From NCBI GenBank assembly GCA_964520705.1, contig CAZFPS010000005.1:1-41169 (forward strand): a DNA stretch of 41,169 nucleotides, in the 5' to 3' direction. Below are positions 3,474 through 17,300 of the stretch, one piece after another. The DNA comes from an uncultured Planctomycetia bacterium (GTDB taxonomy: Bacteria; Omnitrophota; Gorgyraeia; Velamenicoccales; JABMQK01). The number at the start of each line of letters is the position of its first letter. Within the stretch, counting starts at the first letter, position 1. Position numbers and translations under genes: made by a program. The notes under the pieces were generated by a model. It ran no database searches and had not been told where the DNA came from. It saw only the letters and a program-made list of their open reading frames with translations.

Positions 3474-3812
3474 ATGTTTAGATACTTAAATAATAAAAGA
3501 GGTCAAAATACAGCGGAGTACGCAATATTAATCGGTGTTATCGTAGCTGCAGCTATAGCTATGCAGATTTATGTCAGGAGAGGAATGCAGGCACGTATAA
3601 AGGATGCCGTGGACTACTCCATGACAAATCCAGGCTCGATATTCAACACCGCTCAGTATGAGCCAGAGTATATGAAATCAAGTTATCAGACGACTTCTGA
3701 ATCTGAAGGTTATGAATCCATGGCCATAGGAGGAGAGGTTACCAGAGGTATCACTAATGAATTCACATCCAGGACAGGTTCATTAACATACACCAATACC
3801 TCTAGTTATTAA
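3474..3812 (+). CDS. type IV prepilin-like protein
   Basis: 'KRG|QNTAEYAILIGVIVAAAIAMQIYVRRGMQ'; SD AAGGGGGTGA. Confidence 0.9.
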   Translation: MFRYLNNKRGQNTAEYAILIGVIVAAAIAMQIYVRRGMQARIKDAVDYSMTNPGSIFNTAQYEPEYMKSSYQTTSESEGYESMAIGGEVTRGITNEFTSRTGSLTYTNTSSY

Positions 3813-3852
3813 TTAAAATTTTTGTAGTCTAATTAATAAGGGGGTGAAACAA

Positions 3853-4167
3853 ATGATTCGTTTATTGATAAAAAAGAGAGGCCAGAGCACATTGGAGTAC
3901 GCCATACTGATCGTTGTAGTTATTATGGCCCTCATTGGCATACAGGCTTATTTAAAGCGGGGTATATCAGGAAGAATGCGCGATTCAGCAGATCAAATCG
4001 GAGATCAGTTCAACCCGGGGTATACCACGTATAATTATTCAACTAGCACATATGCTAAAGTAAATGAAACAGTCGAGGATGGAGCTACTACTACAACGTA
4101 TCAGAATCAATGGTCTGAGCGCTGGGGCAGCGAGACGGTACACAACATGGCGGTAGAGTGGCAGTAA
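3853..4167 (+). CDS. type IV prepilin-like protein
   Basis: 'KRG|QSTLEYAILIVVVIMALIGIQAYLKRG'. The track's GTG at 3844 is part of the SD AAGGGGGTGA, so ATG 3853 is preferred. Confidence 0.9.
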   Translation: MIRLLIKKRGQSTLEYAILIVVVIMALIGIQAYLKRGISGRMRDSADQIGDQFNPGYTTYNYSTSTYAKVNETVEDGATTTTYQNQWSERWGSETVHNMAVEWQ

Positions 4168-4240
4168 AAAGAAGCAAATACCTCTGCCCAATTTTATTTA
4201 TTAGTAAGTAATACATAGCTGGGTAGAGTTGGCAAGAGGA

Positions 4241-4600
4241 ATGATAATGATAAGATTACAAAATAAAATATCAGAATCCAAAACAAGGGGCCAGAGTCTC
4301 GCAGAGTATGGTTTGTTAATCACTGTTGTGACTGTGGCCCTACTTGCCATGCAGCTTTATATGAAGCGCGGTATACAGGGCGTGATTAAATACAGCACAG
4401 ATCAATTTGGCAATCAGGAGTATATGGAGACAGATCCGGAGAAGGTTACCATAACGCATTCAGTTATGCAGTCGATTGGGGATAACGAGAATAGGTTTAT
4501 GCAGGAAGGGACGGCCAGCGGCTTTATGACTACCCTTATAACCGACATGAACACGACCACAACCGGCAACACCACTTATTGGAAAGCAGAGGAATTGTAA
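4241..4600 (+). CDS. type IV prepilin-like protein
   Basis: 'TRG|QSLAEYGLLITVVTVALLAMQLYMKRGIQG'; start at ATG 4241 or 4247 after AGAGGA. Confidence 0.88.
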   Translation: MIMIRLQNKISESKTRGQSLAEYGLLITVVTVALLAMQLYMKRGIQGVIKYSTDQFGNQEYMETDPEKVTITHSVMQSIGDNENRFMQEGTASGFMTTLITDMNTTTTGNTTYWKAEEL

Positions 4601-4602
4601 TT

Positions 4603-4959
4603 ATGGCGAAACGCAATAATTTATTATTTATTAAAAACAGAAATGGACAGACCTCAGGGTTGGAGCTGGCCATATTCATCATCTGCCTGGTGATGGCACT
4701 GATCGCTATGCAGGGTTATATATTGCGTTCAATACAGGGAGGATTGCGGCACTCGTCCGATAAAATAGGCGGCCAGTATGATCCAGAACACACATTTGTT
4801 AATTTTACGACTATCTCCAGAAGTGACATGACCACCGAAGTAGTCGTTGATGTAATAAGAGACATAGTTAATGGGGACTCTATTAATGCCACGACAACAG
4901 TTTTTACAGATTTGGATGAACAGACCAGAACAGGCACAGAAATTGTGGGGGCTTTTTAA
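4603..4959 (+). CDS. type IV prepilin-like protein
   Basis: 'RNG|QTSGLELAIFIICLVMALIAMQGYILRSIQG', with the Glu shifted by one residue; ATG 2 bp after the upstream stop. Confidence 0.85.
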   Translation: MAKRNNLLFIKNRNGQTSGLELAIFIICLVMALIAMQGYILRSIQGGLRHSSDKIGGQYDPEHTFVNFTTISRSDMTTEVVVDVIRDIVNGDSINATTTVFTDLDEQTRTGTEIVGAF

Positions 4960-9766: not shown

Positions 9767-10654
9767 ATGGATATAATTGCACAATTAGTTCTGTTTTTTG
9801 CGATAGTGGTCTTCGTGGCCAATGTCTTAGTCATGATGCTGTCCTCTTATGAATTAAGGACAGCGATTCAGAGAAGATTAAAATTAGATTCTTTTGGCAA
9901 GGAGAAGAAGAGGAATTTGCTCACTACCATCTTAGATCTATTTGTCCCGGTAAATTACATGCTGGTCAATAAATTTTTTAAGAGACACAAGATGGAAGAA
10001 AGGCTGTTTGCCGGCAGGATATCTTTTATGCCGGAGCAATTCTTGGCTATAAAAGAGTTATTGGCATTTGCGTTTTTGGTCTTGACATTTTTATTTGTTC
10101 AGACAGGAGACATTCTGCCGCTTATAATACTGCCGGTGGTAGGATTTGTTGCGCCGGATATATGGTTGATCACGAAGATAAAACAGAGAAAAACAAAGAT
10201 TGTCAGGACTCTTGCAGACGTGGTGGATTTATTGTCTTTATGCGTAGACGCAGGGCTTGATTTTATAGCCGCTTCCAGATGGATCGTAGATAAGTCCATC
10301 CCTAATGCGTTTACCGAAGAGCTCAGCCTGGTATTGCACGAGATAAAAGTGGGCAAGTCCAGAAGAGACGCGCTGCAGGCTATGGCTAAGCGCCTTAATC
10401 TTCCCGATGTCACAGCTTTCTGCCGCACGCTCATTCAGGCTGATAGGATGGGTATTCCTATAGCCGAGGCCTTAAGCGTCTTATCAGATGACGTTCGCGA
10501 CAGATTCTTTAGGCGCACAGAGAGAATAGCTCTGCAGGCACCGATGAAGATGCTCATACCTTTGATACTTTTTATTCTTCCGGTTGTAGGCATAATCGTT
10601 GGCGGGCCGGTTTTATTGCAGTTTATGTCCGGAGGCTTTGTAGGATTAAAATAA
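9767..10654 (+). CDS. tadC: Tad pilus inner-membrane platform protein TadC (T2SSF family)
   Basis: 'DVVDLLSLCVDAGLDF', 'GKSRRDAL', 'LIQADRMGIPI', 'APMKMLIPLILFILP'. Confidence 0.92.
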   Translation: MDIIAQLVLFFAIVVFVANVLVMMLSSYELRTAIQRRLKLDSFGKEKKRNLLTTILDLFVPVNYMLVNKFFKRHKMEERLFAGRISFMPEQFLAIKELLAFAFLVLTFLFVQTGDILPLIILPVVGFVAPDIWLITKIKQRKTKIVRTLADVVDLLSLCVDAGLDFIAASRWIVDKSIPNAFTEELSLVLHEIKVGKSRRDALQAMAKRLNLPDVTAFCRTLIQADRMGIPIAEALSVLSDDVRDRFFRRTERIALQAPMKMLIPLILFILPVVGIIVGGPVLLQFMSGGFVGLK

Positions 10655-10762
10655 AATGATTACAATGATGAAAAAAAATGATTACAGTGATAATAAAATG
10701 ATTGCAGTGATGATTCACCGTAATCAAAAAGCAAGTCAACTACAATGGGATCACAGCAATCA
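10655..10762. repeat. gene-less cluster of GATTACA(A/G)TGAT repeats and their inverted copies (MITE-like)
   Basis: Direct units at 10658, 10680 and 10700; inverted units TTCACCGTAATC at 10714 and ATCACAGCAATC at 10750. The same units flank the GxxExxY gene. Confidence 0.75.
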
Positions 10763-10803
10763 ATATATAGGTAATAATAAGTATATATTATATAGATCAG
10801 AAA

Positions 10804-11334
10804 AATGATTAGTCAAGCACGCACAAAAACTAAGAATGATTACAATGATTGATAAAAAAGATTACAGTGATAGGGCAATGAGAAAGGATCCTCTTACAGA
10901 AAAGATAATTTCTTGCTGTTTCAGGGTTCATAAAGAATTAGGCCCTGGATTTAATGAGCGAATATATCAGAACGCTCTAGAGATTTTATTTGAACAAGAG
11001 TCATTAGGATTTAAGACTGAAAGAATGTTTAATGTATTTTTCCAGGGTCAAAAAGTAGGCAGGTTAAAGTTAGATTTATTAGTAGAGGATCAAGTTATAG
11101 TTGAACTTAAGGCAGTAACAGGAATTGTTCCTAAATTATTCGAGTCACAGTTAATATCATATTTAAAGGTTACAGGCTTAGAAGTAGGATTGTTAATCAA
11201 TTTTGGCAATCGTAAGTGCAGCATTAGGCGTTTAATGTTATCTAGCTTTGGACATTCTGAAAATAATCACCGTAATCAGAAATTAAATCAATGTAATCAA
11301 AAATATAATGATTAGTCAAGCACGCACAAAAACT
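10804..11334 (+). mobile_element. putative inserted GxxExxY cassette bounded by 28-bp direct repeats and 12-bp inverted repeats
   Basis: AATGATTAGTCAAGCACGCACAAAAACT is identical at 10804-10831 and 11307-11334. Inside, GATTACAATGAT (10838) and GATTACAGTGAT (10860) face ATCACCGTAATC (11266) and ATCAATGTAATC (11287). Confidence 0.65.
10836..11315 (+). CDS. GxxExxY protein (PD-(D/E)xK nuclease-like)
   Basis: 'VHKELGPGFNERIYQNAL', 'LDLLVEDQVIVELKAV', 'QLISYLK...GLLINFG'. The true start may be ATG 10878. Confidence 0.93.
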   Translation: MITMIDKKDYSDRAMRKDPLTEKIISCCFRVHKELGPGFNERIYQNALEILFEQESLGFKTERMFNVFFQGQKVGRLKLDLLVEDQVIVELKAVTGIVPKLFESQLISYLKVTGLEVGLLINFGNRKCSIRRLMLSSFGHSENNHRNQKLNQCNQKYND

Positions 11335-14300
11335 GGTGGATTCAAGACTTGGATGAGAGTAGTGGCTCTGACCGTGCTGGTAATCTTTACCCCACAGCAG
11401 ATCGCCTGGGCTATTGATTATGATTGGCGCACAATTTGGAGAGCATCCCAGATGCAGTCCTCTGCCGCAAGCTCACCGGCTATGACTATACCTTATGCTG
11501 CTTTAAAGTCAGCGGGCTTTGAGAAACAGCTGGCCTTTAATATAAAGGAGTCTTTGAATTCTCTACGCAGTTCAAACGCGCAGAGCGTGCTATTTTCCAA
11601 TGATGTAGTGGTTGAGCGTACCAACCGAGCAGCAATCACAGAAGACAGCATAGATAGCATATATAAGCAGTTGGTGGATTCAAACAATGATATCATTACC
11701 TGCGGCGCCTACTCCTTATTTAATATGATGCTGGCTTATGGCCTGACCTCTATCAGCGATAAGCAAAAAACCGAAAAAGAAAATTCGCCTTCAATCTTAG
11801 ATATCGCCAATACAATAATTCTTATCGACTTACTTAGCGATCCGGATCTGCTGCCTACCTTTAGAGAAAATCAATTAGAAGTCTCCTTCTACAGTTTAAT
11901 AAAAGCCGCGGAAGCTTACGGGATGAAGCTGGTGCCATTTCATTTGGAGACTTATAAAAAAGATTTAGAAAGTATTAATAAACTAGTTTCCTTCCCATTC
12001 ATCGCTACAATCGATGAGCCGCACACTGTATTAGTAAAACAGATCGATAAGAACGGTGTGTTAGTTATTGATAATGATGTAGAGAGATTAATCGCGCTGG
12101 AAGAATTTAAAGATCGTTTTATGGGTTATTGTTTGGCGATCGAGGTGGCAAAAGATCCCAGCATAAAAGTAATCAGCCCCTATGATGCCAGATCCATAAA
12201 GATAAACAGGAGATCGCGTCAATATAAGATTACTACTTTTAATGATTTATTCCCTGAGCCAAATTGGCAAGATCAGTTTCTCTCTCTGGCCGCTAATCTT
12301 TTGTCGGCTGGGCTGGGCGGAAAAGGTCATAGCAGGAATGTGGCTAATCAAATATTTGCCTCTAAGATATCGCAATTAGCTACGAATGTCGCCGTAAATA
12401 ATTGGGGCTGGAAGCCTAAAAATGCTCAAATTTTTGGATCTGCTGTAGGGGGCGGCATAGCCGGTTTTAATTCTCCAGGGTCTACTTTCTTAAAGGGTGC
12501 TGCGCAAGGAGCAGCGCAGGGATATGCTACTACGGTGGCTTATAAGTGGCTCAAGAATACAGCATTTTATAAGAACAATCCTGAAATCGGTATGCAAGCG
12601 GTCGGTATGATCGGCAGTACCATGAGTACTTTAGGGCTTTCTATTTTCACTAAACAAGGAATGCCTGGGGCCATAGAAGCTAATAAATTCGCTATGGCTA
12701 AAGGCTTTGCTGGAGGTGTCTTTGATTTAGGTATACAGTACAGCGCGTCTCAGGGGTGGCTTGGTAAGGCATTTGAAAAGAATCCTACTTTCTCTCGCGT
12801 TTTAGGCCAATCAGCAAGCGGTTGGTTTAGTAGAAATGACGGATTGAGTACCAGTAAGTTTTTAGGGAAACAGGCTTTGTCTGCAGGCGTATCTTTGGGT
12901 TTAGATGCCCTGGGAGGCGAATACGATAAGAAGACGAATAAGAACCGCTGGGGCATGACTCCCACGCAGATGGCTGCTGTGACATATGGCGGGACAGCTT
13001 TCTTAGAAGCCGGGCTGGCCAGAAGTTTTAATATATTTGATTTTAAGAAGGATGGAATGTGGGATTTGATGAAAAATAATTTCATCAATAACGTTGCTCT
13101 AAATATGAATCCTGGACAGTATGGCATGGTCAAAACCGGAAGAAAAATACTGAATAAAGACACAGGAGAGTTTGTTGATGAACAAGCCTTTGATCTTTAC
13201 GCAGGCTCTATGCATCTCTCCAGGCTGGGTGAATTTAGCGGCGTAGGATATTTTGAGGGCCAAGTTGATTTAGCTGTAGAAGATGGTGGTTACGCTTCTT
13301 GGAAGGAGTTAAAACAGGATCGTGGTTCAATAAATCTCCTGCCCTCGCTCAGTGCTTCTATGGTAAGACAGACAGCGTCGGTCTTGCACACCGCGGCAAC
13401 AAACACAGCAGTGAATATTATAGATAGAAAGCTTATAAAACCATTTATAGCCCATGCGAATTGGCAAAAGAAACAACATAGAGGCCCTATGGCTCTTGTA
13501 GGGGGGGCAGAGCAAGAATTTGCAGATGTCGGCCTAGTTCCAACAGAGATAGACATTTCGCAAAAAGATATTGAAGATATTTACAATGGTAAAATCAACT
13601 CTGTCACATTGCGCAGCAAAGATGCTCCGAATGAGATTCTGGGTGTTTATAAAATAGATCGAGAAACTGAAGAAATCACTATAATAAACTTTGCCAATGA
13701 TAATGCAAGCACTACATTTAAATTGAAAAAAGGCCAGACGCCGATTATGCTTCTTGCGGATGCAGTAGCGGGCAATCTACCTCACATAGAATTAACTGCT
13801 TTATCTGAAAATGCCTATCTGCAGAAAGCCGAGTACTCCAGAGGAATTGGGGGATGGATTTTAGATAAGCTAGGATTATGGGATCCCGCGTTTGAGCCTG
13901 ACACTATCATAGGGCAGAGGCTCAGAGAAGATAAGAAGCACTGGTTTGACCCTATTTTAATGACAGCAGTTCTAAAGCATAATGAGCATCAATTACAGCT
14001 TGATCTCTTGAGCGGTATGAAGGGCACGCAGAAGCTGACCGCCTGGGAAGTCTATAATCTCAAAGTAGAACAAAAAGGTTTACCTATTGGCCTGGTTTCA
14101 TTTGTTGCTGCTAAAGGTTATGAGTCTGGAATATTCGTAAGTATAGGTAAGAATAAGATACAGGTACCAGTTGCTTCACTTTCTGGCACGTGGGTAGATA
14201 AAGGCAAACCCCAGGCGCTATTTTTATTTAACGCAGATTTAAGGGCAAAATTTGAAGAAGAAGGAAATTCTCTTTTCCATAGCAACCTTCCGGGTCAGGC

Positions 14301-17300
14301 TCGTGAAACCTACGGAAGCATTAGTCGTGTTACGGGTAAAGATGATGCTGGTAGAGAGATAGAATTAGGTTGGCAGATAGATAAAGGTTCTTTAGTTGCC
14401 TTCAACCTATCAACTACATCTTCTAGCACTTTCAGGAATAAAGGTACAACCGATCCTTTAATTGAGAAAGAGTGGATAGAGGCATTGAAAAGTAGTCCAT
14501 CCGAGAGTACTCCGTTAGAAGACCAGTTTGGCTATGAAGAAACCGTAAACGATGTTAACAGAGTTTTCTTTTCTGGCTTTACTGTGCTGGGAGAATCTGG
14601 AGGCATAGATGCCGGAAGGCAGAGGACATTTATGTCTGCCGGCGTGGATGGTTTTCAGGGCGAAAGAACATCTGTTATCGAATGGCAGCAGTATGGTTCT
14701 TGGAATGTCTCTGGAAGCTGGGATAGATTGTCAGGATGGGATTATGTTATGGATTTCTCTTACAAAGACAAAGGCGCTGAACATACTGGTCCCCAGATCT
14801 GGGAAGGCCGTAAGACGACAACTCAGAAGAGAGAAGAGGGATTTATAAAAGGAACAGCTGCTTTCCGTCCGCTTTATCAACCCCTCCAGGCAAATATCGT
14901 GCCAGTTGCGTATAATCAACAGGTTGATAGGGGTTTGGGGTATCTCTGGGATACAACTGTTGATATCTATAATAAGCAGACATATGGGCTAAGCAATACA
15001 GATATATTTATGGCAGAAAATTATTTTGGTGGATTTCAGATCCAAAATGAAGATAGAAAAAAGATGCTGTCTTCAGGCCAAATGATAGGGTACCTCAAAG
15101 ATCAAGGGGCTACGGATTCTGTGGCTGAGGCTTTCGAGGATGTTATTTCTTTTGCTGGGGACGGAGAAAGCGGAGATCGCAGCAGACATACTTTTAATAT
15201 GATGTATCAGGATAATAGCGGCACGTATTCACAAAATCCACTATCAGTTGTTGAAGATAAGTCGGGTGACGGTAAATGGACAGGCACGCTTTATTTACTT
15301 AATCTTGATTTGAATAGAAATGGCGATAGCCTGAATGCTCAGATAATGAGAAGTTCTGTTGGTAAGGATGGCACTATAATTCAGCAAATAGATATTTTTG
15401 ATATGAAAGAAGGTGAGAGGCAGAATCAATTTAGCCTAAGTGCTGATTCGCAAAAGAGACAGGATATAGTAACAGAGGGAGATGGATTGCATGCTGTAAT
15501 TATCACCCCCGGTGAAGAGTCTATGCCTATAAATGCTGCTGAAATAGAGGCACTGACTGGAAGTTTTGAGCAGGCAGATGGCAAGGTTGTTGAGACAGGA
15601 CTTTTGATAAACGAAAACTTCAGCACGTCCTTGACTGGTTGGGCAATAAAAAGCGATAGGGAGAATGTGGGCGGCTGGGATAATACAAACAAAGTAGGTT
15701 TTGATTTTGGGGATGGTATCAAAGAAAAAGACATAATTGAGCAGGCTGAAACAATAACAGATGAAACGCCGGTGAACCATTTATTAGTTAACGTAGGAAA
15801 AGATGGCGGCACAAAAGCTTTAATAGAAGCTTGGGGAATAGACATAGATGATAAAAAGAATTTGCAGAATGAAGGCGTACCCAGAAGAGGCAGGTTCGTA
15901 TTAAAAGAAAGTGGAGACCACCAAGTTGCCATAGTAGACAATTTGCCTACAATTACTCAGCATAGCGATTACAGATTTGATAATACGGGAGCTCCGGATC
16001 CGTTGACTGGTTGGTGGGCGTTTGATACCTCTGAAGAGGATGGTTCTACTGCGAATCTGCAATTTGGAGAGAGCATGTTCCCTGACAACATAAATGAGAG
16101 GATCGGAGTAGAGTATGCCATTATAAAATCGATTAATAGCGAGGGCAATTATGCGGATGCTATAACTAGCATTATGCATTTTGATAGAGCTAATCCTCTT
16201 ACTTGGCAGACGCCAAAGACGACCTTAGAAGACGGGACTATTTTAACTTTGCCATCTGGTTGGAGAGTTCAAGGCGCAGATACTGTTGGTGAAGTACAAC
16301 AGTTAATCGACGATGGAAAAATTAAATTAACTACGGCTAAAGACGCACCTAATTTAGGCGGTGTAATTAATAGGTTGCACGCATTTGAGAAAATCAATGG
16401 ACAGTGGCAGCCCTACATGGAAGGTCATGGTGAAATCAGCTTAGGAGTTGTTACCGATGCAGACAATGTTGAGAGATCTCCTTTCGGGGATAGAAAGTAT
16501 GCTTTAGAGCTACAAGCTGATATTAAGGGAGAGGTTCTTCATCCTGGATTATATGTAAGCGTTGACCCTACAAAAAGAGCTGAGGCAATGGAAGCCGCTT
16601 CCGTAGCAATGAGCAGAACAGATCCGCAAACCGGAGAAACTCAGATATACAATAGCGCTGACGATGTTGATCCTAGCGCTCCGACAAGCTTTAGCTTGGA
16701 AGGTTCTTCTTGGGATGGAAGCAATACCCAAATTCAAGTATTAGGCCTATCCGAATCCGGAAACCATAGAGTATCTGGAGATATATCTTATTTATTGTCA
16801 GGCTACAACTTCACTCCATATGAAAATATTGGGACAGGATCAAAGATAGAGATTGCTAAAGGCATGCCAATTACAACAGTATCGCCTGGCATGCAAACCA
16901 TCAATCCAGCTACAGGCACACATTCGATCAGCCAGTATGTTGTGACTAATTTTGAAACAGCGGAAGATACTCAAATAGAATTTGGTGACCTTGCCCTGAA
17001 AAAAGACGGAACCATAGATAGAGTAAATACTACTACAGGAGGAATTTCTGTAGGAGCTAACACCACCGGAGTCTTGTTTGATGATGTCTCTTTAACTACT
17101 CCTTCCGTATTTGGAGATGCACGCGTTATTAATACCATGTATGATAAAGAAGGAGGATTCTTAGGTAGAGATGTAGCTGAGATAAACTTCGGTGATAAAG
17201 ATAACTCAGTAGCTTTAACTACACTAGATCCTAAATATGATGTCAAATTTTATAGATATAGAGACCAAGAGAATCAAGCTGAAATTCAGGGAGATTATTC

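Follow-up and report, generated by a model that had tools for sequence, protein, structure and literature searches.

How does a small nuclease gene come to stand between two perfect copies of the start of its neighbour, and what does this arrangement tell about the way in which the gene arrived there? The question is raised by a 41,169-nt stretch of DNA from an uncultured member of the Omnitrophota (GenBank assembly GCA_964520705.1; genome G000 in the following), which we call the window and which is the whole of contig CAZFPS010000005.1 (C5), one of 134 in a 1.88-Mb assembly. Here a GxxExxY gene, coding for a predicted nuclease of the PD-(D/E)xK type, lies directly upstream of a giant open reading frame (ORF), and a perfect 28-bp direct repeat flanks it. 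An earlier note had taken the unit for a non-canonical mobile element with an unusually long target duplication that leaves the target gene intact. The giant ORF is indeed unbroken, and empty orthologous junctions speak for an inserted unit that is gained and lost; the long duplication, however, does not hold as a trait of the element, as a direct repeat of host coding sequence around the gene was seen at none of the 99 other loci surveyed.

We propose, with a probability of roughly 0.6, that an armed nuclease cassette of a widespread class was inserted off-register at the start of the giant gene, that the duplication was a one-off event, that the coupling to the giant gene was kept, and that the nuclease acts on the motif arrays which form the arms of the cassette. 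Judged from the sequences compared here, the 28-bp repeat more likely came about as a by-product of a single off-register insertion, and we do not take it for a signature of the class.

The repeat and the arms of the cassette

The two copies of the repeat, at 10804-10831 and 11307-11334 on the forward strand (D4 in the repeat search of the window), are 100% identical, start 503 nt apart and are the only two occurrences of this 28-mer in the assembly; by arithmetic, about 1e-8 chance matches of 28 nt would be expected within 41 kb. Each copy consists of an A, the ATG and the next eight codons. The downstream copy holds the working start of the giant gene at ATG 11308 and overlaps the end of the nuclease gene, whose TAG ends at 11315, and the upstream copy opens a remnant ORF of 15 codons, MISQARTKTKNDYND-stop (10805-10852, forward strand), both as described before. 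The giant ORF itself (11308-41169, forward strand) is open to the end of the window and comprises at least 9954 aa, being cut by the contig end. Recombination between the copies would remove 503 bp, as had been calculated correctly.

Just inside the repeat lie the two arms, both read on the forward strand. The left arm (10835-10871) contains the motif copies F1 (10838-10849) and F2 (10860-10871), 22 nt apart, and the right arm (11266-11298) contains the reverse copies R2 (11266-11277) and R1 (11287-11298), 21 nt apart. The pairs F1/R1 and F2/R2 are the two 12-bp inverted pairs of the earlier note; every copy is within one mismatch of the 12-nt motif GATTACARTGAT, so that each arm carries two phased copies of it. 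The inverted pair I1 of the repeat search spans 14 nt at 93% complementarity. The motif is matched eight times in the window against 0.58 expected, a count that none of 100 shuffles reaches, and seven of the eight matches lie in 10658-11298. Across the genome, with one mismatch allowed, 21 forward and 20 reverse matches compare with 8 and 17 in the control; this overall enrichment is weak, and only the clusters of the motif, not its genome-wide count, are informative.

Between the arms lies the nuclease gene (10878-11315, forward strand; 145 aa from ATG 10878), recognized as an ORF, by profiles and by its homologues. Its frame is open from ATG 10836, and, to judge from the homologues, the true start is likely ATG 10878 (MRKDPLTEK...).

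We tie the repeat to the insertion because its copies bracket the cassette closely, coming within 3 nt of its left end and about 7 nt of its right end, and because they begin with AATGATTA, the opening 8 nt of a forward motif unit and also the native gene start of the relatives with an empty junction. A local duplication by slippage or unequal exchange, for example between AATGATTA words, could have arisen without any relation to the cassette in such an AT-rich, repetitive region, where AATGATTA at 10655, 10677, 10804, 10835 and 11307 offers ample microhomology. We consider this improbable in view of the close bracketing; moreover, a simple tandem duplication would copy the cassette too, and no relative has the duplication but lacks the insert.

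Could the repeat be the product of a chimeric join in a fragmented assembly of the metagenome type? Logan contigs from three independent groundwater studies (X1, X2 and X3), each covering part of the stretch, are 100% identical to it. X1 (10790-11243) and X2 (10769-11047) cover the left junction without differences, and X1 (11254-11493) and X3 (11248-11398) the right one; X1 is without cover at 10678-10785. Because contigs of three studies match both junctions, we regard the locus as real DNA, and an assembly artefact is scarcely conceivable.

The insert is larger than the earlier note had described, and a correction is due here: an extra gene-less repeat unit, mini element A (10656-10761, forward strand), lies just upstream of the cassette, with forward motifs at 10658, 10680 and 10700 and reverse motifs at 10714 and 10750. 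It opens with ATGATTA, at the position expected for the ancestral start of the giant gene, and follows the second of two genes with profile matches to T2SSF (TadB/C-like) that precede the insert; this second gene is TadC-like (9767-10654, forward strand; PF00482, E 3.7e-15). An AT-rich piece (10762-10803, forward strand) separates mini element A from the upstream 28-mer. Compared by eye, it is common to the window and the sister species G001, which suggests that it was probably inserted before the two species split.

Inserts at the junctions of the T2SSF and giant genes

In the sister genera G002 and G003 the stop of the second T2SSF gene and the giant start ATGATTAG are only 7-11 nt apart; the same interval in G000 measures 652 nt and is made up of mini element A, the AT-rich piece, the upstream 28-mer and the nuclease cassette. 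The gene is thus absent from orthologous junctions, and the possibility, named in the earlier note, that such loci always contain it does not apply. The bases right after the T2SSF stop in G000 read ATGATTAC; they would be the old giant start, now fused to the first motif copy.

Other relatives carry other inserts at the same junction. That of G001 is 193 nt long, has no nuclease gene and contains repeats of another motif type, which closely resemble the arms of the second GxxExxY gene of G001, on another contig. The two metagenome contigs that a scan for the giant-gene start returned both come from a further relative, in which a gene-less element of 135 nt with a third type of motif fills the junction; the scan found no close strain of G000. 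In G055, which belongs to another family of the class, a PF05635 gene occupies this position. A second junction, between the two T2SSF genes, is filled with GxxExxY cassettes of different subfamilies in G051 and G055 and with a 276-nt gene-less insert in G001, and is 8-9 nt long in G000, G002 and G003. Because such varied elements occur at two junctions across the relatives, the operon appears to be a repeated landing place for them.

Two further observations concern G001. A candidate duplication of the gene start in that species was dropped, as the upstream sequence matches an arm of its other cassette. The C-terminus of its second T2SSF protein (L004, about 1290-1310) differs from those of G000, G002 and G003, which is consistent with a deletion that removed the gene end together with an older gene-less element.

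A class of cassettes and their gene-less derivatives

The genome of the window contains one full cassette and four gene-less copies of the element, recognized as motif clusters at C5:10656-10761 (mini element A), C36:14522-14605, C64:7691-7747 and C64:9658-9777. Downstream of a response-regulator-like ORF and before the gene that follows, at C13:8177-8344, lies a C-terminal GxxExxY fragment of another subfamily, enclosed by inverted repeats of its own with the motif CACGAAT; it gives the impression of a decaying cassette on its way to a gene-less element. Several motif clusters are also present in G001. A de novo search of the genome for inverted exact 7-mers in a 2+2 arrangement gave three clusters against three in the control and was too strict; two of its three clusters are the studied locus and a cassette with a PF05635 gene.

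Does the same architecture accompany GxxExxY genes elsewhere? We surveyed 23 full-length loci from the class and 80 from many phyla, including Omnitrophota, Planctomycetota, Nitrospirota, Bacteroidota, WOR-3 and Chloroflexota; the 80 come from a search of genome contigs with a profile of nine sequences of one subfamily, towards which they are biased. By eye, nearly all of the 23 have at least two copies of a short motif upstream and its reverse complement downstream, with a spacing of about 20-22 nt. The motif varies among loci, and the two arms of one locus agree. We found an inverted 7-mer with two or more copies on each of the two sides at 47 of 97 GxxExxY loci; in controls drawn from the window's genome the share was 1.1% among 1000 random segments and 1.2% among 583 random ORFs. 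Between the flanks of a locus the median number of inverted 8-mer matches is 7 and that of direct matches is 1; a cross-locus control for these counts is uninformative, since many loci share the motif. The neighbours are mostly co-oriented with the cassette gene (downstream at 82 of 98 loci, upstream at 84 of 92, both at 67 of 87), and the median gaps to them, 71 and 92 nt, leave little room for a promoter of the cassette's own. One cassette (L026 1323-1994, in G002) lies between tRNA-Val and tRNA-Asp genes on the same strand; tRNA neighbours are not general, with one case among 60 loci scanned besides L026.

We thus encounter what is apparently an undescribed and widespread class of palindrome-armed cassettes with full, decayed and gene-less forms. 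Our literature search, which did not extend to subscription journals, found no account of this architecture at protein-coding junctions under GxxExxY, PDDEXK_3/PF13366, PF05635 or S23p.

Of the flanking repeats that the earlier note had proposed to look for at other GxxExxY loci, the inverted ones are borne out by the survey, and the direct ones, as duplications of host sequence, are not. The longest direct repeat between the flanks reaches at least 12 nt at 14 of 100 loci, against 1 of 100 in the control; the long ones inspected at other loci are built of the locus's own motif or of whole repeat units, such as the units present on both sides of the gene in L043, L057 and L125. Candidate duplications elsewhere are 4-11 nt long and uncertain. 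Around one gene-less element of G000, on C36, a 12-bp direct repeat (14486-14497 and 14636-14647) lies about 25 nt outside the motif arrays, within C36:14486-14647, and a small GC-rich hairpin stands on each side between this repeat and the arrays; a repeat of this length is reached in 9 of 3000 random window pairs.

These data bear directly on the notion of a canonical transposon whose own enzyme cuts with a 28-bp stagger and leaves a long target-site duplication as its regular signature. The perfect 28-bp repeat around the unit, the 12-bp repeat of the C36 copy and short stretches possibly duplicated, noted by eye at the cassettes of G055 (6 nt) and G051 (11 nt), are what such a transposon might leave behind. 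The candidate lengths, however, vary from 4-6 through 11 and 12 to 28 nt, the 99 other loci lack a direct repeat of host coding sequence, those inspected being built of motifs or units, and the cassette codes for PF13366 only, without a transposase family. Filled and empty alleles in Pedobacter, compared by eye, likewise differ without any duplication. A transposon of this kind is therefore unlikely.

Gain and loss in Pedobacter

The junction that holds a cassette in Pedobacter kyungheensis was followed through 41 genomes, of which 40 matched; 30 loci were fetched (L139-L168) and 29 scored. The gap between the two neighbouring genes is at most 33 nt in 11 of the 29 species, among them L145 with an uncertain gene start, 117-197 nt in six, where other hairpin repeats fill it, and 489-596 nt in the remaining 12. 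Ten of the long alleles contain the GxxExxY gene, which is broken in two of them (L140 and L154). The long alleles L148 and L153 have instead a different ORF of about 90 aa. In three empty alleles the downstream gene starts with ATGATTAC, the beginning of the motif. The divergence of the cassettes is uncorrelated with that of their flanks (r = 0.04), over a range which we judged too narrow for an inference about horizontal exchange. Several copies of the cassette are present per genome in culturable Pedobacter, seven in G061. Together with the junctions described above, this distribution suggests that gene strings acquire and lose members of the class where one gene stops and the next one starts.

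A minimal nuclease

What is the protein that these arms enclose? It matches PF13366 (PDDEXK_3) with E 7.3e-36 and 123.5 bits against a cut-off of 22, and TIGR04256 (GxxExxY) with 127.6 bits against a cut-off of 35. In an alignment of 23 sequences that includes the studied one, G17, E22, D61, E71, K73, Q86 and Y90 are invariant and Y25 is conserved in at least 90%; the catalytic D, the ExK and QxxxY residues and the GxxExxY motif itself are all present. The AlphaFold model has a pLDDT of 96, and its top fold match in the Protein Data Bank (PDB) is Cas4 SSO0001 (E 6.5e-4, TM 0.58), followed by the AddAB nuclease domain, Cas4 Pcal_0546 and lambda exonuclease; searched by sequence, the PDB yielded no match. 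The PD-(D/E)xK-like identity given in the earlier note is thus supported by profiles and by the predicted fold. The core comprises only about 115 aa, and searches of Pfam and NCBIfam found PDDEXK_3/GxxExxY as the only family in the cassette, with no known transposase family and no HUH Y1 transposase. Because of the invariant residues, the confident model and the fold matches, we take the protein to be a minimal RecB/Cas4-type PD-(D/E)xK nuclease whose active site is under selection. In the portion of the full-text literature that was accessible, GxxExxY, PDDEXK_3 and PF13366 appear in passing mentions or with the function listed as unknown, and a survey of 2012, as far as its available text goes, gives PF13366 an unknown function and many transfers (PMC3424549).

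The position of the arrays just upstream of co-oriented genes, at the 82 of 98 loci noted above, admits another role for them, namely as operators to which GxxExxY binds as a regulator of the downstream gene; their motif spacing of 20-22 nt, about two helical turns, would suit the binding of a protein. Against such a regulatory module stand the invariant catalytic residues, the absence of a DNA-binding domain beyond the nuclease core in Pfam searches, and the presence or absence of the cassette at the same junction among congeners, as well as its occurrence between unrelated genes. We regard this role as very improbable.

Reading frames across the inserts

The native spacing of 7-11 nt between the T2SSF and giant genes in the empty relatives suggests that the two are translationally coupled. 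In G000 the 652-nt insert is crossed by a series of abutting or overlapping ORFs of 50, 15 and 159 codons. The first (10656-10808, forward strand) begins a single nucleotide past the stop of the T2SSF gene, runs across mini element A and ends in a TGA that overlaps the next ATG (ATGA); the 15-codon remnant follows, and then the nuclease frame, which leads to the giant ATG. The homologues L030, L031, L034, L035 and L046 stop within the first downstream repeat, and the studied nuclease frame runs 26 codons further than these, through the right arm.

The inserts of relatives are bridged in the same manner. At the G001 junction (L004 1307-1501) a 64-codon ORF overlaps both neighbours (ATGA and TAATG), at the other junction of this species (L133 3288-3560) a 90-codon ORF ends in TAATG, and in the metagenome relative (L134, about 1384-1497) a 38-codon ORF, seen by eye, ends 3 nt before the ATG. 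Bridging frames were thus found in all four inserts examined. In four tests the observed open runs were reached by 12, 36, 124 and 1144 of 5000 shuffles, the value for the 50-codon ORF of the window being 124. This pattern suggests that selection keeps translational coupling across inserts, and in G000 the series of bridging ORFs would preserve the coupling to the giant gene. A promoter scan gave 4 sites against 4.1 expected, with no strong forward-strand match in the AT-rich piece.

Do the arms act as DNA or as RNA?

The earlier note had suggested folding the RNA to see whether the two ends pair. They do so in the predicted fold: the minimum free energy (MFE) structure of 10790-11345 pairs F1 with R1 and F2 with R2 at -115.7 kcal/mol (z -2.55), and none of 100 shuffles folds as well. 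Comparison among loci does not bear out such pairing as the chief role of the arms. A conserved RNA stem should favour wobble pairs on one strand; the arm alignments of 55 loci, with 2706 matches, 451 transversion mismatches and wobble-type mismatches without strand bias (143 sense and 132 antisense), show no bias of the RNA type. The likeness of the arms is concentrated in the repeated motif copies and forms no continuous helix, and by eye both 12-nt pairs carry a non-wobble mismatch on the sense strand. One turn of the DNA helix takes about 10.5 bp, so that a spacing of 20-22 nt amounts to about two turns, and the spacing of the motifs within the arms suggests that a protein binds them on DNA. 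We conclude with moderate confidence that the arms act at the DNA rather than the RNA level.

A further consideration concerns PF05635, the family of the protein encoded in intervening sequences (IVS) of 23S rRNA, a four-helix bundle. All four PF05635 genes examined, three of three in G000 (C4:16351-16653 on the reverse strand, C13:653-979 and C13:12749-13063) and one in G055 (L131 2906-3271), lie in cassettes of the same build, flanked by inverted arrays of short motifs and wedged between co-oriented genes. In the Coxiella IVS, according to the available text of one study, the inverted termini pair into a stem of 28 bp, heptameric direct repeats precede the ORF, and cleavage by RNase III takes place; the same study regards the question of how rRNA intervening sequences arose and spread as unsettled (PMC4990558).

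Our cassette might, by analogy, be an IVS-like RNA element whose arms pair in the transcript, where RNase III would cut the stem, so that the unit is removed or processed as RNA, and whose DNA repeat would be incidental. Such an element is compatible with the explanation that we prefer, and it keeps its weight because PF05635, the classical IVS ORF, sits in cassettes of the same build; the MFE fold, the inverted termini and direct repeats of the Coxiella IVS and the cassette between two tRNA genes speak for it as well. The missing wobble bias with its dominant transversions, the discontinuous likeness of the arms and the non-wobble mismatches speak against it. Ribosomes would, besides, melt the stem, as ORFs cross the arms, and Rfam has no family match in 10300-11700. 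On balance we think an IVS-like element possible, if doubtful.

A possible course of events

What could have been the mechanism of the duplication under an off-register insertion? The native giant start, (A)ATGATTAG, resembles the beginning of a motif unit, (A)ATGATTAC, and may have served as the landing target. The older gene-less copy at 10656-10761 and the AT-rich piece would have been inserted first and the nuclease cassette later. The right junction is like that of ordinary copies, with the last reverse motif, a few AT-rich bases and then ATG; accordingly placed, the right end of the cassette would have been joined a few bases upstream of the ATG, as is usual, and the left end 28 nt inside the giant gene, leaving these 28 nt on both sides. 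The right join may have been made by homology or microhomology at the motif-like start and the left one by illegitimate joining 28 nt downstream. Three routes lead to such a product: homology-facilitated illegitimate recombination, a template switch during replication, or a staggered cut. The substrate of the nuclease is probably the motif arrays, as DNA, and its action would favour the spread or the maintenance of the cassette.

Several points weigh against this course of events. The three routes give the same product and cannot be told apart from the sequence; the perfect 28-nt repeat could also stem from a later local duplication, and the resemblance of target and motif is drawn from a small number of junctions. 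Movement was not seen: contigs of the three groundwater studies contain no empty-site joint, loose end or circle, and no second identical copy of the cassette was found. The best relatives among the matches listed are at most 63% identical, which tells little about donor and age. A handful of motif elements per genome fits poorly with active spread, and the Pedobacter cassettes at the followed junction, 57-95% identical to each other, fit one old insertion followed by losses. The cassettes with PF05635 have the same arms and no nuclease, so that the cargo need not be a mobility enzyme. The controls for the 7-mer arrays represent a single genome. As to coupling, one of the four open-run tests (1144 of 5000) is not significant, and a gap of 25 nt follows the 15-codon ORF if the nuclease starts at ATG 10878.

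The surrounding operon

Orthologues of the giant protein were found in 32 of the 61 related genomes; their open frames measure 13,008-14,691 aa within the family and 39,687 aa in G007. A Peptidase_C39-like domain occupies aa 188-279 of the giant protein (E 6.1e-9). Upstream of the T2SSF genes, at 3474-4959 of the window, lie four small ORFs of 107-126 aa, whose N-termini share the motif G-Q-(N/S)-(T/L)-(A/L)-EY. We take this motif to resemble that of Flp/TadE-type pilins; with such pilin-like N-termini, the operon of T2SSF genes and giant gene looks tad-like.

Significance and comparison with known systems

GxxExxY is a large and widely annotated family. If its members are systematically the cargo of cassettes, they gain a testable role as selfish or mobility nucleases, and the several copies in culturable Pedobacter make the idea testable at the bench. 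It would also connect GxxExxY with PF05635 and with the question of how rRNA intervening sequences arose and spread. Bridging ORFs may be a general way for inserts to live in tightly coupled operons, and for the giant genes of Omnitrophota the 5' junction would be a recurrent landing site, with possible effects on expression. Going further, we tentatively raise the possibility that GxxExxY and PF05635 are alternative cargos of one ancient and widespread palindromic class with arms made of short-repeat arrays, of which the IVS would be one habitat. Its members, mobilized by the GxxExxY nuclease much as REPINs are by RAYTs, would home to sites close to start codons with a likeness to their end motif and would remain harmless in operons through open frames that hand translation to the next gene.

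How does the cassette compare with elements already described? The IVS of 23S rRNA with an S23p/PF05635 ORF, for example in Coxiella burnetii and Leptospira, are likewise small, sporadic, horizontally acquired and built of complementary termini around an optional small ORF, with short direct repeats preceding the ORF, so far as the available text of PMC4990558 shows. The PF05635 genes of G000 and G055, in their cassettes of the same build, add to this likeness. The studied cassette differs in its place between a T2SSF gene and the giant ORF rather than in 23S rRNA, in its nuclease cargo, and in its arms, which are phased copies of a short motif instead of one continuous stem and are without the wobble bias of an RNA.

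RAYT/REPIN systems combine a REP-associated tyrosine transposase of the HUH Y1 type with dispersed REP doublets in tens to hundreds of copies. They resemble our elements in an enzyme gene flanked by inverted short repeats and in gene-less palindromic copies between genes of the same genome. The enzyme of the cassette, however, is of the PD-(D/E)xK Cas4/RecB-like type and not an HUH Y1 transposase, the copies amount to a handful per genome, and they are placed 5' of genes within gene strings.

Free-standing homing endonuclease genes, such as seg and mob of T4-like phages, are also small nuclease genes between conserved neighbours, present or absent at orthologous sites, with a target that resembles sequence carried by the element. 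Homing leaves no duplication, and these genes, unlike the cassettes, lack flanking arrays of inverted repeats and gene-less derivatives. Insertion sequences (IS) and miniature inverted-repeat transposable elements (MITEs) share with our case the inverted ends, the gene-less miniature copies and a flanking direct repeat. Their target-site duplications usually measure 2-14 bp, which 28 bp far exceeds, and the cassette has neither a known transposase family nor a regular duplication across copies.

Integron gene cassettes, finally, carry attC sites, imperfect palindromes with two pairs of inverted boxes, and they are similar in this pairing, in being co-oriented and in having no room for a promoter of their own. 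The studied boxes, in contrast, exceed those of attC in length and repeat a single motif (an integrase or attI was not searched for), and the ORF is usually found within the palindrome instead of beside it. Taken together, these comparisons suggest a unit that is related in its build to the intervening sequences of rRNA and in its logic to the RAYT/REPIN systems.

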